Positions 14,799-34,241 of a DNA stretch of 64,000 nucleotides are shown piece by piece. The first letter of the stretch is position 1, and each line of letters begins with the position of its first letter. Origin of the DNA: an uncultured Clostridia bacterium. Lineage in GTDB: Bacteria > Bacillota > Clostridia > Christensenellales > QALW01. A program made the translations under genes and the position numbers. A model generated the notes under the pieces. The model saw only the letters and a program-made list of their open reading frames with translations. It searched no databases and was not told the DNA's origin. The stretch covers positions 22,376-86,375 of the forward strand of contig CAKRZX010000002.1 of the NCBI GenBank assembly GCA_934434555.1, written 5' to 3'.

Positions 14799-14876
14799 AT
14801 TGCTTTGGGCGCAAAAATTTCGCAAAAAGAAGATTTCGGCAGTTTCAGCGCGGCTTGTGCGGGATTTTTGATTTCA

Positions 14877-17256: not shown

Positions 17257-17259
17257 ACG

Positions 17260-18000: not shown

Positions 18001-18680
18001 TGCAGTATATCGATATCGAGAAAATCGATGGAAAGACCGCGAGCAGATTGGAGAGAATAATAGAAAAATCCTATGCTTCGTACTGGAAAAAGAAACGGGC
18101 GTTTGATATAATCGCCGCAACGCTTTTGCTTATTCCGCTTTTCGTGCCGATTTTGATTATGGCGCTGATTATATTTATTGACGACCCTCACGGAAATCCT
18201 TTTTATAAGCAGGTGCGTATCGGGCGTCACGGAGAGGAATTCTATATGTACAAGTTCCGTTCAATGCACGTTGACGCTGATAAACGCAAGAAAGAACTGC
18301 TTGATAAAAACGAAATGGACGGACCTGTTTTTAAGATAAAAAATGACCCGAGGGTTACAAGGGTGGGAAAAGTGATAAGAAAGTTTTCAATAGACGAACT
18401 GCCGCAGTTGTTTAATGTTTTTGCGGGTAATATGAGCCTTGTAGGACCGCGTCCGCCGCTTCCTGAGGAGGTGGAAAAGTACACCGATTATGATAAACTC
18501 CGCCTTATAGTTACTCCGGGGATAACCTGCACATGGCAGATCTCAAAAAACAGAAACGATGTTTCATACGAAAAATGGCTTGAAATGGACCTTGATTACA
18601 TAGAACACCGAACAACATGGGGAGACATAAAAATTATACTTAAAACTCCCATTGCAATGCTTGAAGCCACAGGGAGATAG
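18000..18680 (+). CDS. Initiating phosphoglycosyltransferase (bacterial sugar transferase, small monotopic PGT)
   Basis: FKFRSM...DGPVFKIKNDPRVTRVG..IDELPQLFNVFAGNMSLVGPRPP matches the family. I chose the ATG at 18000 (TAATG overlap, aggtggga RBS). GTG at 17988 and ATG at 17994 are alternatives. Confidence 0.9.
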   Translation: MQYIDIEKIDGKTASRLERIIEKSYASYWKKKRAFDIIAATLLLIPLFVPILIMALIIFIDDPHGNPFYKQVRIGRHGEEFYMYKFRSMHVDADKRKKELLDKNEMDGPVFKIKNDPRVTRVGKVIRKFSIDELPQLFNVFAGNMSLVGPRPPLPEEVEKYTDYDKLRLIVTPGITCTWQISKNRNDVSYEKWLEMDLDYIEHRTTWGDIKIILKTPIAMLEATGR

Positions 18681-18681
18681 A

Positions 18682-19812: not shown

Positions 19813-21020
19813 ATATGAACGAAGTTTTCAGGCATATTTGCTTGCAGGCGGAAAAAACACTTTCAGCAGAAGAACTTGATTTGTTGAAAAATACGTTTAC
19901 GCTTATAAAATGTGACGGCAACCTGTTTGTGTTCGGATACAGGGACAAAGCCGCGTACAATGAATTTTTGGCAAAAAACAAGAATGCTTTGCGCAGCGCG
20001 TGCGGCGAGGTCTGCGGACAGATGCCCGATATAAGGTTCAGATTTTTGAAGAAAAAACGCGAAAGCGAAGATAAGCGTGAAAAGAACTGTAAAAAAGGTA
20101 TAAAAAATGTAGTTGCGTCGCTTATCTGCCTTGTACTTGCATTTGTTTTGGGTGTTATAAGCGTAAACTATATAGCAAACAGAAATTTTAAGGAAGATTT
20201 CTATTCCGTAAGCATAGCGCGGACGGCTGAAAATTTCAGGGTGATTCAACTTTCCGACCTGCACAACTGCTCTTACGGAACGGACAACAAAAATCTGCTT
20301 GACAGAATTACAAAACTCAGACCCGATATCATCGTTCTTACCGGCGACTGCCTTGACGAAAACGGCGATGTTGAACAGATTGTCCGCTTCTGCCGTGCTT
20401 TAAGGGAAATTGCTCCCGTGTATTATATTTACGGCAATAATGAGTGCAGACGGGCATTTTCATCGGTTATGACACTTGAAAGTCTTGATTCGCTTATAGA
20501 CGCAACGGACGAAAACAGAGATGTAAAAAAACTTTACGCTCTTGACAACGGCTTAAAAGCAACGCTTGAATCGAGCGGCATAAAGGTGCTGTTTAACGAA
20601 AGCGACAGCATTACGGTGGGAGAAAACAAAATCCGTATTTTCGGAACGCTCACGTCAAACCCGTCGGCATTCTGGCAGTATGCGGGAGCGGAATTCAGCA
20701 AATTCATAACGGAAAACAGCGATGAAATCAAACTGTTTCTATGCCACGAACCGCTGCTTATCGAAACGATAAAAGAGCCTTATTGGGGCGATTTGGTGCT
20801 TTCGGGCGATACTCACGGGGGAGAAGCGAGAATCCCCGGATTGGGCGCGGTGTATTCACGATCTTTCGGGTTTTTCCCCGAAAGAAGCAAGCATATGATA
20901 TACGGAAAATATACTTCCGGCGATTCACAGGTAATAGTAAGTTCGGGGCTTGAAAACAAAAACCCTTTAAGGATATTCAATCAGCCCGAAATAGCGATAA
21001 TCGACATTAACAAGTATTAA
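19809..21020 (+). CDS. Membrane-anchored calcineurin-like metallophosphoesterase with a DnaA-N-like N-terminal domain
   Basis: Phosphoesterase motifs are present: LSDLHN, LTGDCLDE, GNNE, LCHEP and SGDTHGG. A single TM (VVASLICLVLAFVLGVISV) lies in the middle. The roughly 80 N-terminal residues follow the DnaA domain I pattern. ATG at 19815 is an alternative start. Confidence 0.8.
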   Translation: MNMNEVFRHICLQAEKTLSAEELDLLKNTFTLIKCDGNLFVFGYRDKAAYNEFLAKNKNALRSACGEVCGQMPDIRFRFLKKKRESEDKREKNCKKGIKNVVASLICLVLAFVLGVISVNYIANRNFKEDFYSVSIARTAENFRVIQLSDLHNCSYGTDNKNLLDRITKLRPDIIVLTGDCLDENGDVEQIVRFCRALREIAPVYYIYGNNECRRAFSSVMTLESLDSLIDATDENRDVKKLYALDNGLKATLESSGIKVLFNESDSITVGENKIRIFGTLTSNPSAFWQYAGAEFSKFITENSDEIKLFLCHEPLLIETIKEPYWGDLVLSGDTHGGEARIPGLGAVYSRSFGFFPERSKHMIYGKYTSGDSQVIVSSGLENKNPLRIFNQPEIAIIDINKY

Positions 21021-21035
21021 GGAGGTGCTTTTTGA

Positions 21036-22400
21036 TTGATACCACAGATAATTAAGGCGGCGGTGATTTTAGTATCGTTTTTTCTGTTTGCCCGGGCGGC
21101 GGTCGTTTTTTATAAAAAGTCGCGGCATCAAACGAAAAGTCAGACAAAAGCGGAATTAAAAAAGGTGAAAATCTTTTCTTTCGGCGCGTTCGTGTATGCA
21201 ATTATAATCTGTTTTTGTTTTACTCTTGCATCCTACTTTGATACCGCAAAACAGGCAAGCGCGGTTGTTGCGCTTAACTATGCCGAGGCTTCTTTGGGGC
21301 AGAACGTAAACGGAACAAGGTTCAATATGTCCGAAATAATCTCCGACGACGTTATGAAAAGAGTAATAAAAAAAGGCGGATTCGATGATTTGACCGTTGA
21401 CGACTTAAAAGAATGTTTCAGCGTTTCGGCACTGAATCAGGGCAATTCCTATTCAAAGGACAAGTATCATATTTCAACCGAGTTTGCGGTGCAGTATCAG
21501 GCAAGCAAAAAAACGAAAAAATATGATTCAAATGCGGTGGTGCAACTTCTGTGCAATTCTTACCGTGATTATTACTTTGACAATTACGTAAACGACTTTC
21601 AACTGCTTAACGATGAGCGGACGGCGGACGGGCTTGATTATATTGATGCCGCCGACCTTTTAAGCAAGCGCGCGAACAATATTCTGAACTATCTTTACGG
21701 ACTTCGGGAGAAAAATTCTGCGTTTATTTCATCAAACGGCTCAACGTTTGCTTCCGTTGCGGCAAAAGTCGAACTGCTTTCGTCGGCACAGATAAACGAT
21801 TCGGTTTATTCCTTTATTCTGCAAAACGGAATTTCAAAGGACAGCGAAAAACTTATCAGTCGGTATACGTATACGAATATTCTGTACGGGTACGACAAGC
21901 AGAAAGTGCAGCAGGCATACAGCATAACAAACAGTGCCGTTGCAAAGTACGATAAGGATATGGCGCGTATAGTGCTCGTTCCCACATGGGATAACGACGG
22001 GCAGTATTACATGGGACGCACGAAAATAGGAATTGATACTCTTTCGAAGCAGTCGGTTTCGTACAGCAATAGTATTGCGTCAATCGAAAAAAGCATAAAG
22101 GACAATGAACTGAAAATAGAAAAGTTCAAATCCGCGGCGGGCAACAGTGAAGAAAACAGGGAATATGTTGCGTCGCTTATATCGTCTGCGGAAAAGAGCC
22201 TCGAAGAATTGGCACACGAGGCGAGGGCAATAGGTCAGGAATACTATTCAAGTCAGATGAACGAATGTATTTCCGCAGCCGTTTATCAGGGAACATTGTT
22301 TTCAAAAGCAAAAGTGTTAGCGCTTGTTACGGTATTGGCGTACATTGCATTTTGGGCAAAAAAGTCGTCGGAGAAATTCGGCGCTCACGAAGAGGACTAA
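21036..22400 (+). CDS. Polysaccharide co-polymerase (Wzz/PCP)-like membrane protein
   Basis: TM segments sit at both ends and flank a region of about 350 aa. The N-proximal stretch (ASAVVALNYAEASLGQNVNGTRFNMSEIISDDVMKRVI) is paralogous to the same region of the next gene. TTG start after ggagg. Confidence 0.55.
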   Translation: MIPQIIKAAVILVSFFLFARAAVVFYKKSRHQTKSQTKAELKKVKIFSFGAFVYAIIICFCFTLASYFDTAKQASAVVALNYAEASLGQNVNGTRFNMSEIISDDVMKRVIKKGGFDDLTVDDLKECFSVSALNQGNSYSKDKYHISTEFAVQYQASKKTKKYDSNAVVQLLCNSYRDYYFDNYVNDFQLLNDERTADGLDYIDAADLLSKRANNILNYLYGLREKNSAFISSNGSTFASVAAKVELLSSAQINDSVYSFILQNGISKDSEKLISRYTYTNILYGYDKQKVQQAYSITNSAVAKYDKDMARIVLVPTWDNDGQYYMGRTKIGIDTLSKQSVSYSNSIASIEKSIKDNELKIEKFKSAAGNSEENREYVASLISSAEKSLEELAHEARAIGQEYYSSQMNECISAAVYQGTLFSKAKVLALVTVLAYIAFWAKKSSEKFGAHEED

Positions 22401-22412
22401 GGAGGTGCTTCC

Positions 22413-24293
22413 GTGGAAGAGAAAAATGTTTTTGGGCTTATAAAAAAACTGCTCCCGTATGTAGTGGTGCTTGCTTTGATTCTTACCGCTTTTATCGGGG
22501 CTGCTTTAAGAAAACAGCAGAAATATATTGCGTCGGCGGTAATAAGTTATAATTTCAAATCCGCCGAGGAAGGTAAGACACCCGCGGGAACGGATTTGGA
22601 CGTGAATGAAATAAAGTCGTCGGCAATATTGAGTAAGGCGATAGAAAAACTTTCGCTTTCAGCCGAATATTCGGCAGATAAACTTTCGTCACGAATAAGC
22701 ATTACACCCGTGCCCGACCCCGACAAAGAGGCACAGAAGAAGGCAAAACTTGAAGAGGGCGAAGAATATGTCTATGTCCCTTCAACGTATATTGTTGCTT
22801 TTGCCGCAACAAGCAGAGAAGGCAGCCGTTTTGCACAAAGTATGCTTGATGAGATACTTGACGCCTATTTTTCGATTTTCGGAGAAAACAACATAAATGT
22901 TGAGCACATAAGCAATAACATTAAGGAAATCTACAATAACGATTACGATTATCTGCGTATGGTGGAACATATCGATGACAATATCGAAAACACCGTAAAT
23001 ATGCTCTATCAGCGCGACAGTGCATATCCGTACTACCGTTCCACCGAAACGGGAATGTCTTTCGGGGATATTATCGGCCGCTTTGAATTTATAAGAAACG
23101 TGAACCTTAAAGACCTGTATTCCGAAATATACGATTATCAGATAACAAAAAGCAAAAGCCTGCTTAACGCATACTACGATACGAGAATAGACAACAACAG
23201 GATAACCGGCTCGAATGAAATGAAGATGTTCGATGACATCGAAGAAGTTATTGATGCTTATGTGTTCAAAATGCGTGAATCGGGAAACACGAACATAACG
23301 TACGAGTATATCATGAAAGAAGTCCACAACAAGGATATTACCGACGGCAAGGGGAATATTATAACGAAGGTTGACCAGACCGTAACGTACGATGAACTTC
23401 TTTATGCGTGGCGCGATCACGATCTTAATGATGCATATGCAACCGTTGATACCGCCTATTGCAGGTATGTGCTGGATTCTTTCAATTCCTGCACCGGCGC
23501 GTGTGAAAACGGCGAATGCGGACATTCTGATAAAACCTGTGTGCAGCTTTCCGACCCGGAATATTCCGGGAGAGAAAAAGATGCAGAAGAAAAACTTGAA
23601 GCCATAGTGGAAGAACTGAATGTCCTTTACGATAAAACCGTTACGGCAAACAGCGAGTATAACGGATATTTGGGCTGTAAGAATATTTCGATTCTTTCTT
23701 CACCGTCAACAAACGAAAGCATAAACGTAACGCTTTACAGCATTATAGCCTTTGTATTCATAATGGTTATCTGCTGCGGCGGACTTATTCTCATAGGCAG
23801 AATGAATGATATTGTTATTGCAAACTTCTATGTTGACAAGCGCACAGGATTCTATAACAGGGCGTATTTTGACAAATTCCTGCAAAAGAAGAGCAGGAGC
23901 ATTATTGACGACGGCACGGTCATAGTTTCGGTTTCCATAAAGAATCAGCGTGAGATAAACAAAGAATTCGGGCGAAGTGCGGGCGATGAAGTTATCGAAC
24001 TGTTTGCGCAGAACCTGAAAACGGCTTTCTCAAAGATGAACGCAATGTTTGTTTATAACGAAAACACGCACTTTATTTTGGTAATAGACAAAACAGATTC
24101 CATTACCGCAGAGGACGCTGTGCAGACTTTCGCGGTGTATATCGAGAACAGGGAATCGTCGGAAAACGTTGATATTAAATATTCCGTTGGCGTTGCCGAA
24201 ACGTTCAGGGAAAAGATAAAATCGGCAAGGGCACTGCTTGTTGAAGCCATAAAGAACAGCAAGGATTTTGAGGCGCTGCCGAAAGCAAAATAA
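22413..24293 (+). CDS. Wzz/PCP-like co-polymerase fused to a C-terminal degenerate GGDEF domain
   Basis: The order is TM1 (LLPYVVVLALILTAFIGAAL), a Wzz-like segment (ASAVISYNFKS..GTDLDVNEIKSSAILSKAIEKLSL), a long external region with CTGACENGECGHSDKTC, then TM2 (LYSIIAFVFIMVICCGGLILIG). A GGDEF fold follows (DKRTGFYNRAYF..INKEFGRSAGDEVI). Its GG(D/E)EF position reads NENTH, its I-site position reads SKMN and its DxD position reads SVSIK. Confidence 0.75.
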   Translation: MEEKNVFGLIKKLLPYVVVLALILTAFIGAALRKQQKYIASAVISYNFKSAEEGKTPAGTDLDVNEIKSSAILSKAIEKLSLSAEYSADKLSSRISITPVPDPDKEAQKKAKLEEGEEYVYVPSTYIVAFAATSREGSRFAQSMLDEILDAYFSIFGENNINVEHISNNIKEIYNNDYDYLRMVEHIDDNIENTVNMLYQRDSAYPYYRSTETGMSFGDIIGRFEFIRNVNLKDLYSEIYDYQITKSKSLLNAYYDTRIDNNRITGSNEMKMFDDIEEVIDAYVFKMRESGNTNITYEYIMKEVHNKDITDGKGNIITKVDQTVTYDELLYAWRDHDLNDAYATVDTAYCRYVLDSFNSCTGACENGECGHSDKTCVQLSDPEYSGREKDAEEKLEAIVEELNVLYDKTVTANSEYNGYLGCKNISILSSPSTNESINVTLYSIIAFVFIMVICCGGLILIGRMNDIVIANFYVDKRTGFYNRAYFDKFLQKKSRSIIDDGTVIVSVSIKNQREINKEFGRSAGDEVIELFAQNLKTAFSKMNAMFVYNENTHFILVIDKTDSITAEDAVQTFAVYIENRESSENVDIKYSVGVAETFREKIKSARALLVEAIKNSKDFEALPKAK

Positions 24294-24308
24294 CAGGGAG
24301 GGCAAAAC

Positions 24309-25574
24309 GTGAAAAAGGGGATAGACGCGGTAATAAAAACATACTTTCTTTCCGTTATGTTTTTAATGTACTATTTCATAACCCAGGAAACTTCCGTTGG
24401 CGGTATAGGCATTACTCTGCGTCACGTTTTTGCCCTTTTGCTTATTGTTTCGGCATTCGTGTACTTTCTCTTTTCACCGGATATTGCACGGGGGGCGGTT
24501 ACGGTAAAATCTTCACTTGTATTCGCCGTGCCGCTGGCGATAACGCTTGTTTCGTCAATGCTTGTGTGGGTAATTGAAAAAAGCGCCGCATCAACTATTG
24601 CCCGCGGACTTTCAAGCAGCATAATTTATATGAATGTTTTTTCCTGCTCGCTGGCGGCGGGAAGCGTGCTGTATGTGTTCGGTGAGGACGGAATCTGGTT
24701 CAACCTTGCCGCGATAGTTGCGTCAAACCTTGTTATGATTTTTCAGATTATACTTTCCGACGGCGCGGGCACGTTTTTTTTGGAATTTGTCCGCCTTGTG
24801 GCAACTTTTGCGTCCGACACGGGCGAGACGATAGTAAAGGCTGAAATTCACGAACTTGCTTTCTGTCTGGGGGCGTATATAATTTATATGCTTCTGAAAC
24901 CCAAAAAGAAAGTGTGGTTCTGGGTGCTTTTTGCGTTAGCCTGTTTCTGCTTTGTTGCGGCGTTAAAGCGTATTGCGGTAATTGCAATTTTCGCGGCGAT
25001 CTCAATAAGACTTCTGCTTTTGCTCCCGGGAATAATCTCACAAAAGGCGGTGTCGCGCACGGCAAACGGAATGATGATTCTGTGCATTCTGCTGCTTGTG
25101 GGCTATATCTATATAATAAGCGCCGATGCGTTTACCTATCTTGAAAAAGCGGGCATAGATACAAGCGGGCGGGCGAATATATATTCTTACGTAAAAGACT
25201 TCTACACCTTTTCGCCCCTCTTTCCGGGACGGGGAATAGGATTTTTAACATATCAACTTTATGAAAAGACGTCAATCGGTGTGTCATCGGTGCATAACGA
25301 CTTTTTGCAGTTCTATATCGATTTGGGCTTTTGGGGATATATTCTTTGGCTGATTTCAATGACTTTTCTGCGCACAATGTATTTCGGTAAAAACGACGCC
25401 GATACCGCGGCTGTTACGGCGGCGCTTACCGTATATCTGTTAATAGTTTCAAGTACCGATAATACTATGAATTATCCGCTTGTTACTACCGTTATGGGCG
25501 TTTTGATTATGGGCAACGGATTCGGTAAAAAGGTTGAGGCACAGCAAAAATATTTTGAAAGCCGACCCGTATAA
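24309..25574 (+). CDS. wzy: O-antigen/EPS polymerase (Wzy, O-antigen ligase family)
   Basis: The 421-aa polytopic protein has the Wzy_C-like stretch SSVHNDFLQFYIDLGFWGYILWL. GTG start after gggaggg. Confidence 0.8.
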   Translation: MKKGIDAVIKTYFLSVMFLMYYFITQETSVGGIGITLRHVFALLLIVSAFVYFLFSPDIARGAVTVKSSLVFAVPLAITLVSSMLVWVIEKSAASTIARGLSSSIIYMNVFSCSLAAGSVLYVFGEDGIWFNLAAIVASNLVMIFQIILSDGAGTFFLEFVRLVATFASDTGETIVKAEIHELAFCLGAYIIYMLLKPKKKVWFWVLFALACFCFVAALKRIAVIAIFAAISIRLLLLLPGIISQKAVSRTANGMMILCILLLVGYIYIISADAFTYLEKAGIDTSGRANIYSYVKDFYTFSPLFPGRGIGFLTYQLYEKTSIGVSSVHNDFLQFYIDLGFWGYILWLISMTFLRTMYFGKNDADTAAVTAALTVYLLIVSSTDNTMNYPLVTTVMGVLIMGNGFGKKVEAQQKYFESRPV

Positions 25575-25588
25575 AAGAGAAAAAAATA

Positions 25589-26809
25589 ATGAAGATACTG
25601 TTTGTAAATAAATTTCTTTATCCCCGCGGCGGTGCGGAAAGTTATATGCTGGGGTTAGGCGAATACCTTTCAAAAATCGGACACGAAGTTCAGTATTTCG
25701 GTATGTCTGACGAAAAAAACACCGTGGGCAACAAAGCGGGGGCATATACCCCGAATATGGATTTTCATAAAAAAAGTTCCGAAAGATTCTTGTATCCGTT
25801 CAGAATAATATATTCCTTTGAGGCAAGAAGAAAGATCGGTAAGGCACTTGACGATATGAAACCCGATGTTGTGCACCTTAACAACATAAATTTTCAACTT
25901 ACGCCCTCGATAATCGATGAAATAAAAAAGCGCAATATTCCGCTTGTGTGGACATTGCACGACTACCAGCTTATCTGTCCCGCACATCTGCTTTACAACA
26001 GTGATAAAAACTGTGTTTGCGAAAAATGCGTGGGCAAAAGCAAAATATACTGTATCAAAAACAAATGCATTCATTCTTCGCGGATAAAAAGCATACTGGG
26101 CGCGGCGGAATCGTTCTTTTATAAAATAAAAGGTACGTACAAAAAGGTCGATTTATTTATTGCGCCAAGCAAATTTCTGTATTCAAAACTCGTGGCGGAT
26201 AACAGAAAAATGTTTGAAAACCGCACGGTAGTTTTGCATAATTACGTTGCAAAGCATACTGCGTCGGAAAACATAAAAAGCAAATTTCCGTTCCCGTATG
26301 TCGCTTTTGCGGGCAGGCTCAGTCAAGAGAAAGGCACGCGCATACTTAAAGAAACCGCAAGACTGCTTCCCAACGTTCAGTTCGTGGTTATGGGCGGCGG
26401 GGAAGAAGAAAATATGCTTAAAGAAGAGAAAAATATTCATCTTACCGGCTTTGTAACCGGTCAGATGCTTGTTGATAACGTTGCCGGTGCCCGTGCGGTG
26501 GCGGTGCCGTCGGTATGCTTTGAAAACTGTCCGATGACAATACTTGAAGCGCAAATGCTTTCTGTTCCCGCGGTTACAATGAATATGGGAGGAATGGCGG
26601 AACTTGTTGAGGACGGCAAGACGGGCGTGCTGGCGGAATCAGTCAATTCCCGTGCATTTGCCGCGGCGGTGGAAAATATTCTGTCGGACGATAAAAGGCT
26701 TGAACAGATGAAAGAGAATTGCAAAAAAGAGGCAGAAAACTTTCTCACGGTGGACAAGTATTGTGAAAGAATTCTTCGTTACTACAAAAAGGTTATTGAA
26801 AATGGTTGA
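25589..26809 (+). CDS. GT4 family glycosyltransferase
   Basis: MKILFVNKFLYPRGGAESY begins the protein, and the EX7E region ENCPMTILEAQMLSVPAV..ELVEDGKTG is present. Confidence 0.88.
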   Translation: MKILFVNKFLYPRGGAESYMLGLGEYLSKIGHEVQYFGMSDEKNTVGNKAGAYTPNMDFHKKSSERFLYPFRIIYSFEARRKIGKALDDMKPDVVHLNNINFQLTPSIIDEIKKRNIPLVWTLHDYQLICPAHLLYNSDKNCVCEKCVGKSKIYCIKNKCIHSSRIKSILGAAESFFYKIKGTYKKVDLFIAPSKFLYSKLVADNRKMFENRTVVLHNYVAKHTASENIKSKFPFPYVAFAGRLSQEKGTRILKETARLLPNVQFVVMGGGEEENMLKEEKNIHLTGFVTGQMLVDNVAGARAVAVPSVCFENCPMTILEAQMLSVPAVTMNMGGMAELVEDGKTGVLAESVNSRAFAAAVENILSDDKRLEQMKENCKKEAENFLTVDKYCERILRYYKKVIENG

Positions 26810-27857
26810 TGTAAGCATAATCGTTCCCGTGTTCAGGGTGGAAAAGTATCTTGACAGGTGCGTTGAATCCCTTGTACGGCAGACCTTAAAGAATATCGAA
26901 ATTATTCTTGTGGACGACGGGTCACCCGATTCGTGCCCCGAAATGTGCGATGAGTGGGCAAAGAAAGACAGCCGGATTAAAGTTATCCGCAAGGAAAATC
27001 AGGGGCTCGGGCTTGCAAGAAATTCGGGACTTGAAAAAGCAACGGGCGAATTTATAGGCTTTGTTGACCCGGACGATTTTGTCGCACCCGATATGTTTGA
27101 AAAACTTTTTCTTGCGGCAAGAAAGGAAAACGCGGATATTGCTATGAGCGGATTATGCTGTATCGGCGGTATAATGACGGAGAAAAAAGACGCGGAAGAA
27201 AGAATAAACTGCTTTGATAAATACTCCGTGTTCAGGGGAGAAAAAGAAATCAACAGGCTTATGCTTAATGTTTCGGGCGCGAAAGCGAAAGAAAAGCAGG
27301 ACAGCAAGTACGGATTCAGCAGCGTAAAGAACATTTACCGCAGCGAAGTAATAGAGAAAAATAATCTGCGCTTTCTTTCGGAAAGGGAAGTGGCAAGCGA
27401 GGACGTTTTCTTCCTGCTTGACTTTCTTCTTAAAGCGCAGTGCGCCGTGGGAATACCGGGGGCGTATTATTATTACTGCCGCAACGGCGAATCTCTTTCA
27501 AAAAGCTACCGTCCCGACCGCTTTGAAAAGTGCAAGGTAATCATTGACGGCATAAACGGACGATTGAAAACCCGTATGCCGGAGAACGAGTATAAAGTTT
27601 ATACCGACCGTCTGTTTCAGGCATATGCGCGGGCGGCATGTATGCAGGAAATTCAGTTTGCAGAACAAAACGGGCTGACGAAAAGGGAACTTGATTCGCA
27701 CCTGAAAGCGATTTGCGCGTCGCCGCGGCTTAAAAATACGCTAAAAAATTACCCTTGGCATAAACTTCCGTTCACGCAGGCGGCATTTGCGTTTACAATG
27801 AGGTTTTCGCTTATCGGGCTTCAAAAATTTCTTGTAAGGTTAAAAAGCGGGGTGTAA
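26802..27857 (+). CDS. GT2 family glycosyltransferase
   Basis: VSIIVPVFRVEKYLDRCVESLVRQTLKNIEIILVDDGSPD and FVDPDD are present. The start was moved to 26802 (MVDVS). Confidence 0.88.
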   Translation: MVDVSIIVPVFRVEKYLDRCVESLVRQTLKNIEIILVDDGSPDSCPEMCDEWAKKDSRIKVIRKENQGLGLARNSGLEKATGEFIGFVDPDDFVAPDMFEKLFLAARKENADIAMSGLCCIGGIMTEKKDAEERINCFDKYSVFRGEKEINRLMLNVSGAKAKEKQDSKYGFSSVKNIYRSEVIEKNNLRFLSEREVASEDVFFLLDFLLKAQCAVGIPGAYYYYCRNGESLSKSYRPDRFEKCKVIIDGINGRLKTRMPENEYKVYTDRLFQAYARAACMQEIQFAEQNGLTKRELDSHLKAICASPRLKNTLKNYPWHKLPFTQAAFAFTMRFSLIGLQKFLVRLKSGV

Positions 27858-27859
27858 AA

Positions 27860-28858
27860 ATGCTCTTTTCGGTCATAGTTCCCGTTTACGGGGTCGAAAA
27901 ATATCTTCGGGAGTGCGTTGACAGCATTTTAATGCAGAATTTTACCGATTTTGAACTGATACTTGTTGACGACGGCTCAAAGGATTCCTGTCCCGAAATT
28001 TGCGACGGGTACGCAAAAAAGGACGGCAGAGTAAAAGTAATACATAAGGAAAACGGCGGACTTGTAAGCGCGAGAAAAGCGGGAATGCGCCGGGCAGAGG
28101 GAGAGTATATAATAAACATCGACGGCGACGACGCTGCTATGCCGGGGTATTTTGAAAAAGCGGCGGAGATAATTTGCAAAAATTCTCCGGATATAATCAC
28201 GTTCGCAGTCAACTTTGTGTCGGGCGGAGATGTGAAAACGGATGAAGAACCTCTTAAAGAGGGACTGTACACGGATATGCGTCCCATACACGAAAATATG
28301 CTTTTAACGCCCGATATGCACCATATGCATTATTTTCTGTGGGCAAAAGTGTTCAGAAAATCGGTCATAGAGGAAATACAACTTAACGCAGATGAGCGCA
28401 TAAGTATGGGCGAGGACGTTATGTGCGTTGCAAAGGCGTACATACGCGCAAAAAGCGTGTTCGTTTCAAAATCGGCAATGTACAACTGCCGCTGCCGCGA
28501 GGGGTCTATGTCCCGTGCGTATAAGTCAACGCATTTTGACGATATTGCTCTCGGCGTAAAAGAACTTAAAGAGATAAAAAATCCGCCCGAAAATTTTGCT
28601 TGCGCGGTTGACAGATATGCTGCATTTATGTTCTTTGTGATTTTTGCGACTGCCGCAAAAGAAAAAGAAAAAAATGTGTGTGAATATTCAAAACAGGTGT
28701 GGTATAATGGTTTTGATAAATCTTTTAAGAATTCGGAATTTAAGAATATATCGCCGAAAAGCAGAATGGCAACGGCACTCTTAAAAAAGAGACGGTTTCT
28801 GCTTGCGTATCGCTTTTTGCGGATATGCGACAGGCTGAAGGGAAACAAAAATGCCTGA
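27860..28858 (+). CDS. GT2 family glycosyltransferase
   Basis: FSVIVPVYGVEKYLRECVDSILMQNFTDFELILVDDGSKD and NIDGDD are present. Confidence 0.88.
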   Translation: MLFSVIVPVYGVEKYLRECVDSILMQNFTDFELILVDDGSKDSCPEICDGYAKKDGRVKVIHKENGGLVSARKAGMRRAEGEYIINIDGDDAAMPGYFEKAAEIICKNSPDIITFAVNFVSGGDVKTDEEPLKEGLYTDMRPIHENMLLTPDMHHMHYFLWAKVFRKSVIEEIQLNADERISMGEDVMCVAKAYIRAKSVFVSKSAMYNCRCREGSMSRAYKSTHFDDIALGVKELKEIKNPPENFACAVDRYAAFMFFVIFATAAKEKEKNVCEYSKQVWYNGFDKSFKNSEFKNISPKSRMATALLKKRRFLLAYRFLRICDRLKGNKNA

Positions 28859-29852
28859 AATTTCGGTTGTAATGGCTGTGTATAACGGCGAAAAATATAT
28901 CAGAGAAGCCCTTGACAGCATTCTGAAACAGACGTTCACTCTGTTTGAGGCAATAATCATTGATGATGCGTCTGTTGACGCTACGCCCGAAATTCTCTCG
29001 GAATATGCAAAAAAGGACAGCCGTATAAAGGTTTTCACCAACGAAAGCAATCAGCGCCTTGCAAAGTCCCTTAACAGGGGAATAGCACTTGCAAAGGGCA
29101 AGTATATTCTGCGAATGGACGCCGATGATATCTGCCTTAAAGACAGGTTTGAAAAGCAGTATGAATATATGGAATCCCATAAGGATACCGATGTATCGTT
29201 TTGCAAATTCTTTGCCAAAAAAGAAAACGAAATTATTCCCTGCTGTGTGGGAAGAAAGTGCGATTTTGAAAGCATAAAGGCAATGTTCCTCTTTTTCTGC
29301 CCGGTTCTTCACCCGGGAGTAATCGCAAAAAGCGAGGTTATGAAAAAGTACGGGTACGACCCGGAGCATACCTGCTCGGAAGATTTGGATTTGTGGATGC
29401 GTATGATTTCCGACGGCAGAAAAATAGAGTGCGAGGACGACTATCTTATGCTTTACCGGCTGCATTCTTCTCAAATTACGGCAAACAGCAGCCGGAAACA
29501 GAAAGAAGAAGTGCTGAAAAGCGAAAGAAAATATTTTTCCGCAATGAACATATCGATTCCGGACGAAGAATTCTATATAAACGGCGTTTATTTTCGCGAA
29601 AGATTTGATGAAAGTAAAATGCGGGAATTCCGTGCTGCGGTTACGGGCGGCGGAAAAATTAAAAAAAGCGCAATATTAAACGCTTTTACGGAAGTGCTTG
29701 CCGAATATCGGCGCGGCGGCGAACGGGGAGTATTGCGTCTTGCGGGAATAAAACTTGCGGTGCTTGGCGCTTTTAAGAAAATAAGAAACTCAAAGGACAG
29801 AAAAAAAGCGCAGATTGCCGCAGCAAATGCAGGGATAGAGATAACAGGGTGA
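28851..29852 (+). CDS. GT2 family glycosyltransferase
   Basis: ISVVMAVYNGEKYIREALDSILKQTFTLFEAIIIDDASVD and RMDADD are present. Confidence 0.88.
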   Translation: MPEISVVMAVYNGEKYIREALDSILKQTFTLFEAIIIDDASVDATPEILSEYAKKDSRIKVFTNESNQRLAKSLNRGIALAKGKYILRMDADDICLKDRFEKQYEYMESHKDTDVSFCKFFAKKENEIIPCCVGRKCDFESIKAMFLFFCPVLHPGVIAKSEVMKKYGYDPEHTCSEDLDLWMRMISDGRKIECEDDYLMLYRLHSSQITANSSRKQKEEVLKSERKYFSAMNISIPDEEFYINGVYFRERFDESKMREFRAAVTGGGKIKKSAILNAFTEVLAEYRRGGERGVLRLAGIKLAVLGAFKKIRNSKDRKKAQIAAANAGIEITG

Positions 29853-29856
29853 AAGA

Positions 29857-31224
29857 ATGAACGAAAACTATATTTTAATAATTTTTATAATTGTGTTCTT
29901 TGCACTGTTTGCATTCGGGCTTATGTTTATTTCCCGTGCGCTGAAACAGTTCAACGGCAAAAAACGTGCGGGATTTGAGCCGCTTCTGTACGTTCAGCGG
30001 CGGTACGACAAAATCCGCAAAATATCGAGAATACCTTGCGGCGTGCTTTACATTACGGCAGGCAACGGCGATATGGAGAAAGTTTCACGCAATGAAAGCG
30101 GACTTTTTGAGCACCTCGGCGAAACTCTGCTTGCGTCCTTTGACGGCAAAGACGACCTGGTTTCAAAGATAAATTCAAAAGAATACGTCGTGCTTACAAG
30201 AATGAGCGAACCGCAGATGAACAGCGTTACCAAACAGATACTGCACGATACGGTGCTGTATTCAAAAGCGAATCCCGACGTGCCGGGCATAAAAATAAGT
30301 TTCGGAGCTTATCTTATTCCGGCAAGCAACGTGGATTTTGACGAAACGGTTGCCCGCGCAAAACTTGCCTGTATTGAATCAAAAAACAGTTCAAGGACGT
30401 ACGTTGCGTGGGATTATAATCTTCAATGCGATTACGATAACCGAGTAATGATAGAAAAAAATCTTAAAAACGGGATTGAAAACAACAACTTCTTCCTTGA
30501 ATTTCAGCCGATAATCGATATCGTAAGCGGGAACATCACCGGCGGAGAGGTGCTTTCAAGGCTTAACGGGGAATCAAAAGTGCTTCTGCCCGCAGACTTC
30601 ATTTCCGTTGTAAAAGACAAGAATATGGATTTTGAATTTGACTGCTACGTGTTTGAAAAGACCTGTCAGTGGGTTTCGGCACACCCCGAGCCCTGCGGAT
30701 TTTTAGACCACGTTTCGGTAAACTTTTCGCGCAGCACTCTTGCAACAAAGGACGCGGCGGAAAAACTGCTTGCAATAGCCGGCGGCTACGGCATTGACAG
30801 GACGTTTATCGCCATAGAGGTGCTTGAAGACGAAAGCGGCGGCTCTTTTAACACGGAAAACATCCGCGAGAACATGAAGATAATAAAGGAGGCGGGAATG
30901 ACCGTATTGCTTGACGATTTCGGCGACGGCTATTCTTCCTTTGACGACCTTAAAAATTTCCCTGCGGACATAATAAAAATAAGCAAATCCGTTACGGAAA
31001 ATATCGAAACGCAGTTGGGCGAAAGAATCTTCAAAAGCATTGCAACCATGGCGAAAAGTATGAAAGTCCAGGTTATCTGCGAGGGGGTGGAAACGCTTGA
31101 ACAGATAGAAATTCTGCGAAAAAACGGGATAAGATTCGTGCAGGGGTACTATTTCTTCCGCCCGCAAAGTCCCAACCAGTTTGAAAAGGCAGTATTAAAT
31201 AACAGAACAAGGAGAGTACAATAA
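29857..31224 (+). CDS. Membrane-anchored degenerate-GGDEF / EAL domain protein (putative c-di-GMP phosphodiesterase)
   Basis: It has an N-terminal TM (ILIIFIIVFFALFAFGLMFI) and a GGDEF-like fold with NSKEY at the GGDEF position. The EAL domain keeps the core motifs EFQPII..GGEVLSR, SVNFS, AIEVLEDE, DDFGDGYSS, IIKISKS, EGVETLEQ and QGYYFFRP. Confidence 0.85.
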   Translation: MNENYILIIFIIVFFALFAFGLMFISRALKQFNGKKRAGFEPLLYVQRRYDKIRKISRIPCGVLYITAGNGDMEKVSRNESGLFEHLGETLLASFDGKDDLVSKINSKEYVVLTRMSEPQMNSVTKQILHDTVLYSKANPDVPGIKISFGAYLIPASNVDFDETVARAKLACIESKNSSRTYVAWDYNLQCDYDNRVMIEKNLKNGIENNNFFLEFQPIIDIVSGNITGGEVLSRLNGESKVLLPADFISVVKDKNMDFEFDCYVFEKTCQWVSAHPEPCGFLDHVSVNFSRSTLATKDAAEKLLAIAGGYGIDRTFIAIEVLEDESGGSFNTENIRENMKIIKEAGMTVLLDDFGDGYSSFDDLKNFPADIIKISKSVTENIETQLGERIFKSIATMAKSMKVQVICEGVETLEQIEILRKNGIRFVQGYYFFRPQSPNQFEKAVLNNRTRRVQ

Positions 31225-31225
31225 T

Positions 31226-31870
31226 ATGAAAGTAAGTTTGTTTGGCTATAACCGTAAGGAAACGGACGATTATTTTAACTATCTTAACGAAAACAACAAT
31301 ACGCAGGCGGGAGAGATAAAGCGTCTGAGTGCCGAACTTGAAGCGGCGAAAAGGGAAGTTGAGGAATATAAACAACTTGATGAACTGAATAAGCGCGAGA
31401 TAGAAAGCCTGAAAGACAGAATCTGCGACTGCAAACTTGACGAAGACGAGCATAAAAAGCAGATAGACGAACTTTCGCGCCGTTTAAGCGAGAAAAAGGG
31501 TGCAGATGAAACCGAGAAACTTGGTATAATTTTCGCCGTTGCTTACAGGGACATAGAAAACAAGAACAAGGCGGTAAGCGAAAAAATAAGAGCTTATGCC
31601 GATATGATGTTTGACCGTATGAACCGCTACCGTGATGAAGTGGGCAAGATAGTGGATTCGGTTACATATATGCAGAACAGGCAGAAAGAAGAACTTGCAC
31701 GGCTCTGCGCGGAAGCGACCGAAAAACTTGATTTGCTTACAAAGGCTTCAAACAATACGGTTGAAGATATGAAAAAGATAGAGGAGAGCCGCGGAAACAT
31801 CTGCGGTGAAATAGAAAATATGCTCAGGGAAACCGCTAACACCGCGGTTTTGGAGGAAAAGAACCTTTAA
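31226..31870 (+). CDS. Coiled-coil protein with a DivIVA-like N-terminal motif
   Basis: The N-terminal LFGYNRKETDDYFNYL resembles the DivIVA/GpsB F..GY...EVD.FL motif. The rest is heptad-rich. Confidence 0.5.
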   Translation: MKVSLFGYNRKETDDYFNYLNENNNTQAGEIKRLSAELEAAKREVEEYKQLDELNKREIESLKDRICDCKLDEDEHKKQIDELSRRLSEKKGADETEKLGIIFAVAYRDIENKNKAVSEKIRAYADMMFDRMNRYRDEVGKIVDSVTYMQNRQKEELARLCAEATEKLDLLTKASNNTVEDMKKIEESRGNICGEIENMLRETANTAVLEEKNL

Positions 31871-31884
31871 TACGGAGGGTAAAA

Positions 31885-33414
31885 ATGGACTGTGCACTTA
31901 TGAAAAAGATAAAAACGTCGGATAAATATGCGTTTGTAAGCACTTTCGTTTTCGGGCTTATTGCGCACTTTTACCGTATGACAAACTGGCTTCCCAACTG
32001 GGATTCGCTTGTGTTCCGTGCGGACACGCAGCATATGGAGCCGCTTGGCAGATGGTTTTTGCCCTACGCGTCCCTTATAAGCACGGAATACGAACTTCCG
32101 TGGCTTAACGGGCTGCTTGCGCTTTTATATTTAAGCGTTGCCGCCGTATTTGTATCAAGAATTTTTGATATGGAAAACAAAGTTGCGGTCTGTCTTTTGG
32201 GCGGAATCACAGCCGCGTTCCCGACGGTAACTTCAACGTTTACCTACTGCTACGTTGCCGACGCATACGCGCTTTCGTTCCTTTTTGCCTGCATTGCGGC
32301 GTATCTTTTAGCCAAAAAAAGTCGCATTGCGGCGATATTTTCCGCAGTTTTAATAACGCTTTCAATGGGAATATATCAGGCATACGTAACGGTTACGGTA
32401 TCGCTGCTGCTATGTTTTTTGATAATAAATTTGCTTTCGGGAAAAAAAGATGCAGCGTCAGCCGTAAAAAGCGGCGCAAAATACTTCCTTTGCGGCGCGG
32501 CGGCATTTTTAATGTATTATATCGTTCAGAAAACAGTCACCGCGGTTATGCATATTGAGGCATCGGACTATCAGGAATTCTCACAAACGCTTTTGTTCAG
32601 GGAAACAGATATTCTTTCGGCAATTCCCGCATCGCTGTATCTGTTCATTCACTTTTTTGCGGATTTTTCAAAGGGATTCAATCTTTATTCGGCGGTAAAC
32701 GTGCTTGTGTTTTTATTTCTTGCGGCGGGATATCTTACGGTTATGATAAAAAATCTGCGGGGCGCGGGGAAAATCATTCTTACGGTTGTTTTAATTCTCT
32801 GCATTCCGTTCGGCTGTACCGCCCTGTATTTTGCAAATATCAATATTGACTATCACTGCCTTATGAAAATGGGGTTCTTTATAGTTTACGTTTATCTTAT
32901 TCTGCTGTTTGAAAAGTTTGATTTTGTTAAACTTGACACGGTAAAAAAGTGGGGGATAACGGCACTTTGCGGACTGCTTATCTTCCTTAATATCCGCACT
33001 GCAAACGTGACGTATCACAAATTGCAGATTTCTTTTGAAAAATCATACGGCATACTTATCAGAATTGCGGACAGAATGGAATCCCTTGACGGTTTCGAAA
33101 ACGCCGAAAAAATTCTTGTGGTGGGCGAACTTGAAAATTCAAAAGCGTATTCGGTTGATTTTCCGCCGGAGATTACCGGCACCACCGACGGGCTGATTAT
33201 AAGAAAAGACGATGAAACCGTACATCAAAGCGTGCTTACGGCGGCGCTTAAAGATTACTGCGACATTGAACTTGATTTCCTTTTCGGGCAGGAGGCGAAA
33301 GATATGAGGGAAAGCGAGCGCGTTAAGAATATGCCCTGCTGGCCCGCGCGGGATTCGGTTGCGATTTTTGAAAATACTGTTATAGTTAAATTGAGTGACG
33401 GGGAAGAAAAATGA
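31885..33414 (+). CDS. Polytopic membrane protein, GtrII/ArnT-like candidate extracytoplasmic glycosyltransferase
   Basis: The 509-aa protein has about 10 or more TM segments and a C-terminal soluble domain. The N-terminal FVFGLIAHFYRMTNWLPNWDSL...LGRWFLPY resembles the Glucos_trans_II family as I recall it. A GtrB-like partner lies at 13627. Confidence 0.55.
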   Translation: MDCALMKKIKTSDKYAFVSTFVFGLIAHFYRMTNWLPNWDSLVFRADTQHMEPLGRWFLPYASLISTEYELPWLNGLLALLYLSVAAVFVSRIFDMENKVAVCLLGGITAAFPTVTSTFTYCYVADAYALSFLFACIAAYLLAKKSRIAAIFSAVLITLSMGIYQAYVTVTVSLLLCFLIINLLSGKKDAASAVKSGAKYFLCGAAAFLMYYIVQKTVTAVMHIEASDYQEFSQTLLFRETDILSAIPASLYLFIHFFADFSKGFNLYSAVNVLVFLFLAAGYLTVMIKNLRGAGKIILTVVLILCIPFGCTALYFANINIDYHCLMKMGFFIVYVYLILLFEKFDFVKLDTVKKWGITALCGLLIFLNIRTANVTYHKLQISFEKSYGILIRIADRMESLDGFENAEKILVVGELENSKAYSVDFPPEITGTTDGLIIRKDDETVHQSVLTAALKDYCDIELDFLFGQEAKDMRESERVKNMPCWPARDSVAIFENTVIVKLSDGEEK

Positions 33415-34241
33415 AGATTTACTTCTGTGCCGACGATTTCGGATTATCACCCGAAAGCGACGGGCATATAAAAGAGTGCAAAGTAAATAAAATAAGCGTG
33501 CTTGCAAATTTTGATGCGGATCTTTCGGAATTAAACGCAAAGGTTTCCACACACATAAATTTTGTTGAGGGCAAGTGCGTAAGCGACAAAAATCTGATTC
33601 CGCTGCTTGTTGACGAAAACGGATATTTCAAACACACGTTCGGGGGCTTACTTAAATTATCTTTGGGCAAGACAGGAAAGGCGTTCAGGCAGCAGGTAAA
33701 GACCGAAATGCGGGCGCAGATAAATAAAGTAAATGCGCCGGAAATGATAGACAGCCATCAGCACGTGCATATGATTCCCGCAATTTTTTCCTGTCTTTGC
33801 GAGATAATAAAAGAGGACGGGCTGCAAACAGAGTATCTGCGGATTCCCGCAGAGCCGGTATTGCCGTACATTTCGGCACCGGAACTTTATAAGAGTTATT
33901 TTTCGCTGAATTTTATCAAACAGCAGACGCTTAAATTTCTTAATCTTTTTAACAAGAGCAAATTAAAAAGTATGGGACTTAAACAAAACGACTTTTTCGG
34001 AATAATGTTTTCGGGCAATATGAATGAAAAACGGGTAAATCGTTTGCTTAATGCGTTTGTAAGGCACGCGGAAAGGAAAAACAGAGATTTGGAAGTGCTG
34101 TTTCACCCCGGGTTTGTTGAAACGGCAGAGGGGAAAAATGTGATGAAAGAATATAAATTCAGCACGTTTTATCTCGCTGATGGGCGGAAAAAAGAGTTCC
34201 TTGCGGCAAAAAACATTGCAAAAGACGAAAAAATGCCGTAA
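33411..34241 (+). CDS. ChbG/HpnK (YdjC-like) carbohydrate deacetylase
   Basis: MKIYFCADDFGLS and DSHQHVHMIP metal-binding motifs are present. Confidence 0.8.
   Translation: MKIYFCADDFGLSPESDGHIKECKVNKISVLANFDADLSELNAKVSTHINFVEGKCVSDKNLIPLLVDENGYFKHTFGGLLKLSLGKTGKAFRQQVKTEMRAQINKVNAPEMIDSHQHVHMIPAIFSCLCEIIKEDGLQTEYLRIPAEPVLPYISAPELYKSYFSLNFIKQQTLKFLNLFNKSKLKSMGLKQNDFFGIMFSGNMNEKRVNRLLNAFVRHAERKNRDLEVLFHPGFVETAEGKNVMKEYKFSTFYLADGRKKEFLAAKNIAKDEKMP

Follow-up and report, generated by a model that had tools for sequence, protein, structure and literature searches.

An exopolysaccharide operon that appears to be controlled by a riboswitch, in the genome of an uncultured gut Clostridia bacterium, harbours a gene that probably encodes a membrane-anchored c-di-GMP phosphodiesterase, acting in negative feedback and as a local c-di-GMP sink; the probability of this reading is put at roughly 0.6. 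The features involved (Table 1) all lie on one stretch of 64,000 nucleotides, referred to as the window. In the proposed mechanism the whole operon would be transcribed from one promoter via a c-di-GMP-I riboswitch. Without ligand the 3' strand of the aptamer would pair into a terminator, while in the c-di-GMP-bound state the aptamer would hold this strand and allow transcription readthrough. High c-di-GMP would therefore switch on the polysaccharide machinery along with an enzyme hydrolysing c-di-GMP at the membrane. The gene of this enzyme would be a fixed component of the Wzy-type operon, and the catalytic part of its product would be turned to the cytoplasm, with the GGDEF-like domain as a dead scaffold. 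Such a self-limiting circuit would be assembled from known kinds of parts.

Table 1 Features of the leader, the operon and the EAL protein (positions in the window)
Feature	Position	Strand	Basis and details
Sigma-70-type promoter of the operon, TTGACA-17-TATTAT	14636..14664	+	11/12 match
c-di-GMP-I (GEMM-I) riboswitch aptamer	14676..14760	+	Rfam RF01051
Remnant of membrane acyltransferase-like gene, C-terminal ~140 aa	14745..15218	+	BLASTP
Intrinsic terminator	14750..14798	+	Arms 14750-14759 (AGACTGCAAT) and 14783-14792 (ATTGCAGTCT), then T-run
Seventeen-gene Wzy-type exopolysaccharide operon	15231..34241	+	Pfam assignments
PCP-like membrane protein, 454 aa	21036..22400	+	Paralog of N-terminal part of 22413..24293 product
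PCP-like protein fused to cytoplasmic degenerate GGDEF domain, 626 aa	22413..24293	+	Pfam GGDEF, AF2
TM / degenerate-GGDEF / EAL protein	29857..31224	+	455 aa, ATG start
N-terminal transmembrane helix (predicted), residues 3-33	29863..29955	+	AF2 helix, then basic stretch
Degenerate GGDEF-fold domain, residues ~43-185	29983..30411	+	Homology and fold; NSKEY at 30172-30186
EAL domain, residues 201-436	30457..31164	+	Pfam EAL; Q217 E231 R235 N289 E321 E324 D353 D354 K374 E409 E412 Q429

The operon, its PCP-like proteins and related loci

The operon encodes a Wzx-like protein, a hexapeptide acetyltransferase, GTs, a priming Bac_transf protein, a Metallophos protein, two PCP-like proteins and Wzy, as well as a GT4, three GT2 proteins, the EAL protein, a coiled-coil protein, GtrII and YdjC. 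The shorter PCP-like protein has TM segments at both ends of its translation and was matched by profile A2 (hmmsearch, E = 3.5e-13). In the longer one Pfam GGDEF was found on residues 473-612 (E = 3e-13), and its AF2 model displays the order TM1, extracytoplasmic helical domain, TM2 and GGDEF, with Foldseek matches to GGDEF domains. The Wzz profile gave a weak Pfam match in 3 of 30 members of this fusion family. The signature reads YNENTHF (family consensus VYNGNxHF) and is not accompanied by RxxD; judged by these residues, the fusion protein is a degenerate GGDEF protein and not a cyclase. A family profile search revealed no other GGDEF or EAL genes in the window, a cognate cyclase included.

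In 63 of 64 evaluable genomes, from uncultured gut Oscillospirales-type Clostridia, the GGDEF-fusion gene is followed at a distance of 7.3-8.1 kb by the EAL gene. A collection with one genome per species contained 250 stretches matching the cluster, all of them from uncultured gut and rumen Clostridia. Of the evaluable leaders about one in two has the riboswitch, whereas the EAL gene is present almost throughout, so that feedback through the RNA switch cannot be the only role of the EAL protein. Among loci of GTDB anchored on the GGDEF-fusion gene the riboswitch count was 11/67, a lower bound since the upstream stretches are too short; when the frequency was re-counted in metagenomes with the Wzx-like gene as anchor, it was absent in 12 of 24 evaluable loci. 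It is also missing in the close relatives L011, L012, L013 and L016, and together these absences indicate that the role of the protein does not depend on the switch. When six loci without the riboswitch were scanned with Rfam for other classes, such as c-di-GMP-II, nothing but tRNAs was found. In one variant of the locus the first gene behind the same riboswitch aptamer encodes a stand-alone EAL protein, with an intact-GGDEF protein (sensor diguanylate cyclase) encoded just upstream. A cGAMP (Hypr-GGDEF) reading of the variant loci was rejected, the neighbouring cyclase retaining GHAAGD.

It is conceivable, but in our view rather unlikely, that the EAL protein is a trigger or sensor enzyme, which binds and slowly hydrolyses c-di-GMP mainly for sensing and governs polymerisation or export by contacting the PCP-like GGDEF-fusion protein, for instance by pairing of the dead GGDEF domains. 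E. coli PdeR, which reportedly contacts DgcM, may serve as a model. Neither PilZ nor an I-site, the canonical c-di-GMP receptors, turned up among the products of the operon, yet the EAL domain strictly co-occurs with a pair of degenerate GGDEF domains (63/64), and the EAL protein and the fusion protein are both membrane-bound. Retention of the EAL gene where the riboswitch is absent would also agree with a sensing role, and the separate stand-alone EAL protein of some loci could be the bulk phosphodiesterase. However, the fully conserved catalytic residues described below suit a plain enzyme equally well.

The EAL protein and its metal site

The start codon of the EAL gene lies 4 nt past the stop codon of the preceding GT2 gene, and AGGGTGA stands immediately 5' of the ATG. 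The AF2 model of the product (pLDDT 87) matched tandem GGDEF-EAL structures and predicts a single TM helix; the basic stretch after it would place the remainder of the protein in the cytoplasm (positive-inside rule). Since no named equivalog reached the cut-off in an NCBIfam search, the protein is not considered an ortholog of any named phosphodiesterase.

A Pfam scan of the protein alone gave no match to GGDEF (PF00990), and homology of the N-terminal domain therefore had to be established by profile and fold. A phmmer alignment of residues 92-443 sets NSKEY (residues 106-110) against the GGDEF of MorA (4rnh), the family profile matches stand-alone GGDEF domains (5euh, 6.5e-6; 4urq, 4e-4), and Pfam GGDEF is reached by 11 of 52 family members. 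By alignment and model the domain is a GGDEF homologue despite the missing Pfam match. The active-site signature GG(D/E)EF is absent and its position drifts freely among 120 homologs. Upstream of it, residues 97-100, which by PleD spacing we take to be the position of the RxxD inhibitory site, read GKDD. As substrate-binding positions cannot be recognised by eye, the domain seems to serve purely as a scaffold. The preliminary description had proposed exactly this arrangement of TM helix, degenerate GGDEF domain with NSKEY at the signature and EAL domain, and the single predicted helix, the GGDEF homology and the Pfam EAL match of 186 bits bear it out.

Pfam EAL (PF00563) matched with E = 8e-55 and 186.2 bits against a cut-off of 31.3 bits. 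In the AF2 model the domain adopts a TIM-barrel-like fold, with TM scores of 0.87-0.88 and an rmsd of 2.7-2.9 A (Foldseek) to the EAL domains of TBD1265 (3n3t/2r6o), MorA and BifA. All motifs previously quoted as retained are present, namely EVLSR (231-235), SVNFS (287-291), EVLEDE (321-326), DDFGDGYSS (353-361), IKISKS (373-378), EGVE (409-412) and QGYYF (429-433); IKISKS is, however, not a canonical K-x-D motif, the Asp being Ser376. Seven residues of RocR with a function in Mg2+ binding or catalysis, E175, N233, E265, E268, D295, K316 and E352, have been used for calling EAL domains active (PMC2952852). The alignment to RocR that had been proposed as a check was favourable for these seven, which correspond to E231, N289, E321, E324, D353, K374 and E409 (set by motif identity and checked against the RocR alignment offsets) and are invariant across 120 homologs with identity down to 31%. 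Four further RocR residues, Q161, R179, D296 and D318, are involved in substrate or M2 'recognition' (PMC2952852). Q217, R235 and D354 are kept here, but the equivalent of D318 is Ser376 (codon 30982-30984), so that this set is incomplete. The corresponding Asp of PA3825, D183, is an M2 Mg2+ ligand (PMC5301497).

Among the 120 homologs 91 have D at residue 376, 24 have S and 5 have G. Loop 6 deviates as well, reading DFGDGYSS instead of DFG(T/A)GYSS with D357 (codon 30925-30927) as the differing residue; across the family this position is occupied by S, D, E, K, R or N. Loss of D376 coincides with an acidic residue 357 (DFG-D/E-G) in 29 of 29 cases, and 357 is acidic exactly where D376 is gone. 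Because the two changes always go together, relocation of the Mg2+ ligand from 376 to loop 6, rather than loss of function, is suggested. Loss of metal-binding residues had been named beforehand as evidence against a phosphodiesterase; one such residue has indeed been lost, and the co-varying acidic residue 357 may compensate for it. Judged by its residues and predicted fold, the protein is likely an active membrane-tethered phosphodiesterase.

LapD and FimX share with the EAL protein a GGDEF-EAL tandem fold in which both domains are non-canonical, and LapD is membrane-associated. That the EAL protein is a catalytically inactive c-di-GMP receptor of this kind, with S376 and the altered loop 6 abolishing hydrolysis, is given little credence. 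The replacement of D376 takes away a Mg2+ ligand, loop 6 departs from consensus and YkuI, an EAL protein with intact residues, is said to be inactive in vitro. However, receptor-type EAL domains are reported to have lost the general base, the Lys and metal ligands, while here no variation is seen in E409 (the general base), K374 or the remaining metal ligands, and the strict pairing of D376 loss with an acidic 357 suggests that the metal site is kept. LapD and FimX have been described as lacking residues for catalysis and metal binding in their EAL domains (PMC5301497 for the DDFGTG of FimX); in contrast, except for the K-x-D Asp all such residues are kept here, the catalytic ones intact and invariant.

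The leader and transcription of the operon

The promoter in front of the operon is the top match within 14.4-34.4 kb, and in the related locus L108 the aptamer likewise stands behind a similar promoter. The leader carries a genuine c-di-GMP-I aptamer, which matched RF01051 over model positions 1-87 of 87 with 59.9 bits (threshold 35; E = 3e-9); by our own derivation the equivalent of G20 is the G at 14686, whereas the leaders of L028, L074 and L108 are of A20 type. Comparison of 9 related leaders revealed that 13 of 21 pairs had changed on both sides, with 92.6% of cells paired against 21-48% in slid controls, and none of 500 shuffles matched the observed score. The 5' arm of the terminator is the 3' strand of the aptamer, and the minimum free energy fold of the leader (z = -4.6) contains the terminator hairpin. 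This overlap was found in 10 of 11 leaders, with compensatory changes and folded segments of about -19 to -35 kcal/mol. The terminator was detected by folding, as its loop of more than 8 nt is overlooked by a simple scan. Since the two structures overlap and are mutually exclusive, the polarity of the switch is predicted to be ON, in line with the c-di-GMP ON switch assumed for this leader in the preliminary description. The product of the gene remnant at 14745..15218 shows 44% identity (BLASTP, E = 9e-38) to residues 174-315 encoded by L014:2272-3219, and relatives keep an intact 315-aa gene.

Bc2 of Bacillus thuringiensis, an ON switch upstream of cap, likewise combines a class-I aptamer with a terminator behind it and controls a surface or adhesion function; in the absence of c-di-GMP the gene it precedes is kept repressed (PMC4933901). 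Unlike in Bc2, the operon controlled here includes a predicted phosphodiesterase gene, which comes first in variants. Class-I c-di-GMP switches of C. difficile have been described as OFF (PMC9286219). If the switch here were OFF as well, or covered only leader-proximal genes, with the EAL gene 15 kb downstream transcribed from internal promoters, there would be no feedback in this genome; in favour of this, a single transcript of the operon would be about 19.5 kb long, and weak promoter-like matches do occur within the operon. This we consider improbable, as the mutually exclusive terminator and aptamer argue for ON logic, the genes of the operon overlap or stand at most 15 nt apart, the internal promoter-like matches are at chance level (38 versus 37.6 in shuffles) and in variant loci an EAL gene stands directly behind the switch. 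No convincing internal terminator was found on the + strand in a simple scan, in which loops of more than 8 nt are missed. The earlier assignment of the EAL gene to an operon thus agrees with its position in a tightly packed string, and co-transcription over 15 kb would be expected.

The reading as feedback or local-pool control, put forward in the preliminary description, is strengthened in part. The riboswitch, the operon, the catalytic residues and related clusters with an EAL gene behind the same riboswitch all point towards it, while the D to S change at 376, the deviating loop 6, the absence of the riboswitch from about half of the clusters, the degenerate GGDEF domain of the partner and the lack of a canonical c-di-GMP receptor among the operon's products weigh against it.

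Known systems and biological meaning

A c-di-GMP phosphodiesterase (a predicted one here) linked to one polysaccharide machine, with proposed action on a local pool, also characterizes PdeK (YhjK) of E. coli. PdeK is reportedly membrane-bound too, with a degenerate GGDEF and an EAL domain and its gene beside the bcs genes; its input region is said to be periplasmic with HAMP. PdeK and DgcC at the cellulose synthase represent local c-di-GMP signalling under local phosphodiesterase control (PMC7397504). That pathway is synthase-dependent and has no riboswitch, its known target being the PilZ domain of BcsA; at the present locus, by contrast, the membrane anchor is a lone TM helix, the pathway is Wzy-dependent, no receptor has been recognised and a riboswitch precedes the operon. 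The tandem GGDEF-EAL fold with a dead cyclase signature and intact EAL catalytic residues is shared with the composite phosphodiesterases Caulobacter PdeA (CC3396) and P. aeruginosa BifA; MorA (4rnh) and RbdA (5m3c) are structural matches. In CC3396 the degenerate GGDEF domain reportedly retains GTP binding and stimulates the EAL domain. In contrast to these composite phosphodiesterases, the EAL protein has a scaffold-like GGDEF domain, a replaced K-x-D Asp and an acidic loop 6 residue.

More tentatively, and with the odds clearly against it, the locus could be a self-contained c-di-GMP-run Wzy-dependent machine, in which the PCP-like/dead-GGDEF fusion and the EAL protein replace the PCP, tyrosine-kinase and phosphatase module of other Firmicute capsule loci. 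The machine would then sense c-di-GMP through the EAL protein, which would act as a trigger enzyme and be more than a sink; nucleotide binding might persist in the dead GGDEF domain, and sensor cyclase, riboswitch and second EAL protein would complete the circuit in fuller loci. The carboxylate swap from D376 to loop 6 would then be a previously unrecognised metal-site variant of active EAL domains. The linked change at 357 and 376 bears in any case on rule-based prediction of active EAL proteins.

It has been stated that c-di-GMP riboswitches rarely control genes of c-di-GMP metabolism (PMC6366702). The present class-I switch, ON-type in its architecture, appears to govern an operon carrying a predicted phosphodiesterase, the gene of which comes first in sister loci. 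This would be a natural and compact negative-feedback circuit that is directly testable. As all 250 matched stretches derive from uncultured gut or rumen Clostridia, the locus may illustrate the control of a surface polysaccharide in a large group of gut anaerobes that has gone unstudied.

Domain composition of the EAL protein

The EAL protein is encoded by an open reading frame that begins 4 nt past the stop of the upstream GT2 gene and is preceded by a purine-rich AGGGTGA. Pfam recognises a full-length EAL domain in residues 201-436 (186 bits against a cut-off of 31.3), and all EAL-protein motifs quoted in the preliminary description were found at their places in the translation. The degenerate GGDEF-like N-terminal domain proposed there, with NSKEY at the signature position, was borne out by phmmer, a family profile and the fold. 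Residues 92-443 align with the GGDEF-EAL tandem of MorA (4rnh), placing NSKEY opposite GGDEF (phmmer, PDB sequences), and the profile of the 52-member family also matches stand-alone GGDEF domains (5euh, 6.5e-6; 4urq, 4e-4). Pfam GGDEF was reached alone by 11 of the 52 members. In the AlphaFold2 model (mean pLDDT 87), a helix (3-33) and an alpha/beta domain (43-185) precede the EAL barrel. Foldseek matched it to the tandem GGDEF-EAL structures of MorA, RbdA, DosP and LapD, and to the isolated EAL domains of TBD1265, MorA and BifA (TM 0.87-0.88). Alignments and model indicate that residues 1-200 are a GGDEF homolog despite the missing Pfam GGDEF match in this region.

The RxxD position of this domain reads GKDD and the signature is lost, while the metal- and guanine-binding residues of active cyclases are unrecognisable by eye. 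Conservation is confined to scaffold positions (Y65, L92, F95, G150, R167, A171 and W185). The domain thus appears to be dead, and its role is probably structural or in contacts. The sole hydrophobic segment of the protein (residues ~5-26) is followed by R27, K30, K35, K36 and R37, which suggests an N-out/C-in membrane anchor; a sensory ectodomain is not predicted. By fold and residues, the EAL protein falls squarely into the composite degenerate-GGDEF/EAL class, deviating in one secondary feature (D318 replaced by S).

Features of the window and of related loci (L handles, from genome and metagenome comparison)
Feature	Position	Strand	Remarks
Promoter	14636-14664		best match of region, directly ahead of aptamer
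c-di-GMP-I aptamer	14676-14760		Rfam, 59.9 bits vs 35
Terminator hairpin arms	14750-14759 and 14783-14792		T-run after; MFE fold of leader
Remnant ORF	14745-15218		right after riboswitch terminator; C-terminal ~140 aa of membrane acyltransferase-like protein
Operon genes, in order			Wzx-like membrane protein, hexapeptide acetyltransferase, glycosyltransferases and priming Bac_transf, Metallophos, two PCP-like membrane proteins, Wzy, GT4, three GT2, EAL protein, coiled-coil protein, GtrII, YdjC
Metallophos gene	19809-21020		YaeI/LpxG-like phosphoesterase, N-terminal extension ~140 aa; conserved cluster member directly 5' of PCP-like genes
Tandem paralogous PCP-like membrane proteins	21036-22400 and 22413-24293		second fused to degenerate GGDEF
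EAL-protein ORF	29857..31224	+	455 aa, ATG start
EAL-protein residues 357 and 376	30925-30927 and 30982-30984		co-varying pair
Cobalamin riboswitch	49133-49309	+	Rfam, 50.1 bits vs 31.5; unrelated to EAL protein
Variant-locus spans	L108:6091-9973, L074:8-2949, L156:2-2370, L124:3-2526, L028:48-1065		
A-type aptamers	L028:58, L074:1938, L108:8426, L110:633, L156:799		

The riboswitch leader and the polysaccharide operon

The leader at 14681 had been supposed to be a c-di-GMP ON switch, and the Rfam match together with the terminator/aptamer overlap agrees with an ON-type design. The terminator uses the aptamer's 3' strand as its 5' arm, so that the two structures are predicted to be mutually exclusive. 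For the covariance model of the aptamer, pairing holds in 92.6% of cells, and changes on both sides occur at 13 of the 21 pairs. The ORF following the terminator shares 44% identity (E = 9e-38) with an intact 315-aa protein of a related locus (L014:2272-3219) and is probably a 5'-truncated remnant, now within the 470-nt leader. Behind the leader lie 17 genes on the + strand, from 15231 to 34241, overlapping or with gaps of at most 15 nt; no convincing internal terminator was found in this gene string.

We favour, with a probability of about 0.6, a riboswitch-driven operon with a membrane-tethered c-di-GMP-hydrolysing EAL enzyme, a mechanism whose functional statements are predictions. c-di-GMP from cyclases encoded elsewhere in the genome would bind the leader RNA and block terminator formation, so that RNA polymerase could continue into the polysaccharide genes. 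The EAL enzyme would be made from this transcript as well, and local hydrolysis near the assembly machinery would limit or insulate the response. Class-I riboswitches whose repression is lifted in the presence of c-di-GMP are known from Bacillus thuringiensis (PMC4933901). That a phosphodiesterase (PDE) can serve a single polysaccharide machine is an established concept for PdeK/DgcC and E. coli cellulose (PMC7397504). Unusual are the combination of a class-I riboswitch with a PDE-bearing polysaccharide operon itself, the absence of any recognised c-di-GMP receptor in the window operon, and the PCP-like/GGDEF fusion, of which a literature search found no description.

The GGDEF domain of the fusion protein (22413..24293) carries the signature YNENTHF (G-N-x-H-F in its family) and lacks RxxD, and the protein is predicted to be no cyclase. 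By spacing, this domain appears to retain guanine-binding N516 and D525 and phosphate-binding R606. The order Metallophos, PCP, PCP-GGDEF is reminiscent of cpsB-C-D; the cluster lacks a tyrosine kinase. Besides these two proteins, no further GGDEF or EAL genes were found in the 64-kb window. That the EAL protein serves instead as a trigger or sensor, by contacting the fusion protein, is considered unlikely.

EAL catalytic residues and the 357/376 pair

The favoured hydrolytic role was examined against RocR, in which E175, N233, E265, E268, D295, K316 and E352 are the seven positions by which an EAL site is judged intact, and Q161, R179, D296 and D318 are four further positions for substrate recognition (PMC2952852). 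Their counterparts, set by motif identity and RocR alignment offsets, are E231, N289, E321, E324, D353, K374 and E409, and Q217, R235, D354 and S376, respectively. The seven catalytic positions are intact, but the Asp of K-x-D is replaced by Ser376, a deviation overlooked when IKISKS was listed among the retained hydrolysis motifs. In PA3825 the counterpart, Asp183, is an M2 Mg2+ ligand alongside the second Asp of DDFG (PMC5301497).

Among 120 homologs (31-100% identity), the seven residues as well as R235, D354, E412 and Q429 are invariant, and position 217 is Gln in 119. The GGDEF-signature columns drift freely in the same alignment, which points to selection on EAL-domain catalysis and none on cyclase chemistry. 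Loop-6 position 357 and position 376 co-vary: a non-acidic 357 accompanies Asp376 in 89 homologs, so in 89 of the 91 that keep this Asp, while the other two combine it with Glu357. The remaining 29 have Asp/Glu357 with Ser/Gly376, the K-x-D Asp being lost always with an acidic 357. The carboxylate may have shifted from the strand to loop 6, relocating the M2 metal ligand and keeping the metal site. These 29 sequences are essentially one clade and therefore represent few independent events. Ser376 speaks for the EAL protein as an inactive receptor, a reading that we regard as improbable.

Related loci and stand-alone EAL genes

The EAL protein occurs in human-gut metagenomes, Hadza samples among them, and has hundreds of same-length relatives. 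The fusion protein is encoded in 250 stretches (scan with one genome per species); the 80 loci listed of these all belong to uncultured gut Clostridia (human, ruminant and other hosts), labelled Acutalibacteraceae, Oscillospiraceae, Ruminococcaceae and similar. The order Metallophos, PCP-like, PCP-like-GGDEF, Wzy, GT4, three GT2, EAL persists at 57% and at 34% identity, and in 63 of the 64 loci long enough to judge, 7.3-8.1 kb separate the fusion gene from the EAL gene downstream of it. L033 (GTDB MAG CATZYY010000005.1) is the only evaluable genome locus without an EAL homolog within 10 kb downstream of the PCP-like GGDEF gene. L001 (ERZ28615273 scaffold_1225) encodes an identical EAL protein amid split cluster genes (454 aa into 302+146, 626 aa into 69+554, GT4 and GT2 in fragments), reflecting either strain frameshift decay or assembly errors.

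With the aptamer covariance model, the switch was located ahead of the cluster in 11 genome and 17 metagenome loci; 24 metagenome loci extend 1.7 kb or more upstream of the first gene, and 12 of these carry it. The terminator/aptamer overlap recurs, with compensatory changes, in 10 of 11 leaders. No aptamer was detected by the model in the close relatives L011, L012, L013 and L016, nor by Rfam in L011 and L016; L011:1400-1710 retains a promoter similar to that of the window (TTGACATTCGGG...). The riboswitch was lost or gained within this clade. It is thus frequent and old in the cluster, yet dispensable, unlike the EAL gene. The L017 match (964-1121) spans 158 nt, with a ~73-nt insertion in the P3 hairpin and the terminator kept, and that of L019 (904-983) reaches only 41 bits without a clear terminator; both switches may be decaying. 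That leader and EAL-protein gene are uncoupled has little probability.

Support for the favoured coupling of switch and PDE comes from variant loci. The first gene past the aptamer in L028, L074, L108 and L156 is a stand-alone EAL of 279-287 aa in which every catalytic motif, K-x-D among them, is present. An EAL homolog of it (325 aa in L124) occupies the corresponding position ahead of the Wzx-like gene in L097 and L124, in which no aptamer was detected; a hexapeptide acetyltransferase intervenes in L108, L124 and L156. Directly upstream of the aptamer, L108 and L074 encode a 761-aa protein with intact RMGGDEF, present as cut fragments in L124 and L156, and L108 has a promoter between this gene and the aptamer. 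The two long enough, L028 and L074, also contain the TM-GGDEF*-EAL gene (GGDEF* being degenerate). At the cluster 3' end, ~2 kb past that gene, L044, L045, L061, L063, L065, L067, L070, L071, L075, L086 and L089 have a stand-alone EAL (51-59% identity to the L108 copy; at about 19.9-20.8 kb in most, 11.4-12.2 kb in L086), so that many loci encode two EAL proteins.

In the five variant-locus aptamers the nucleotide immediately preceding the first P2 pair (column 11 of aptamer alignment A7) is A, where all 18 others, including the window's at 14686, have G. By our own derivation this column corresponds to G20 of Vc2; an A in its place is the mark of cGAMP-sensing GEMM-Ib. GHAAGD is retained in the neighbouring cyclase, which therefore looks like an ordinary c-di-GMP synthase. 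A search of the window found neither a stand-alone EAL nor a neighbouring cyclase. In the variant loci, sensor cyclase, riboswitch and stand-alone EAL would form a complete make/sense/break circuit ahead of the polysaccharide cluster. An EAL gene directly behind an ON-type riboswitch provides independent support that switch-driven PDE expression would be under selection in this cluster family.
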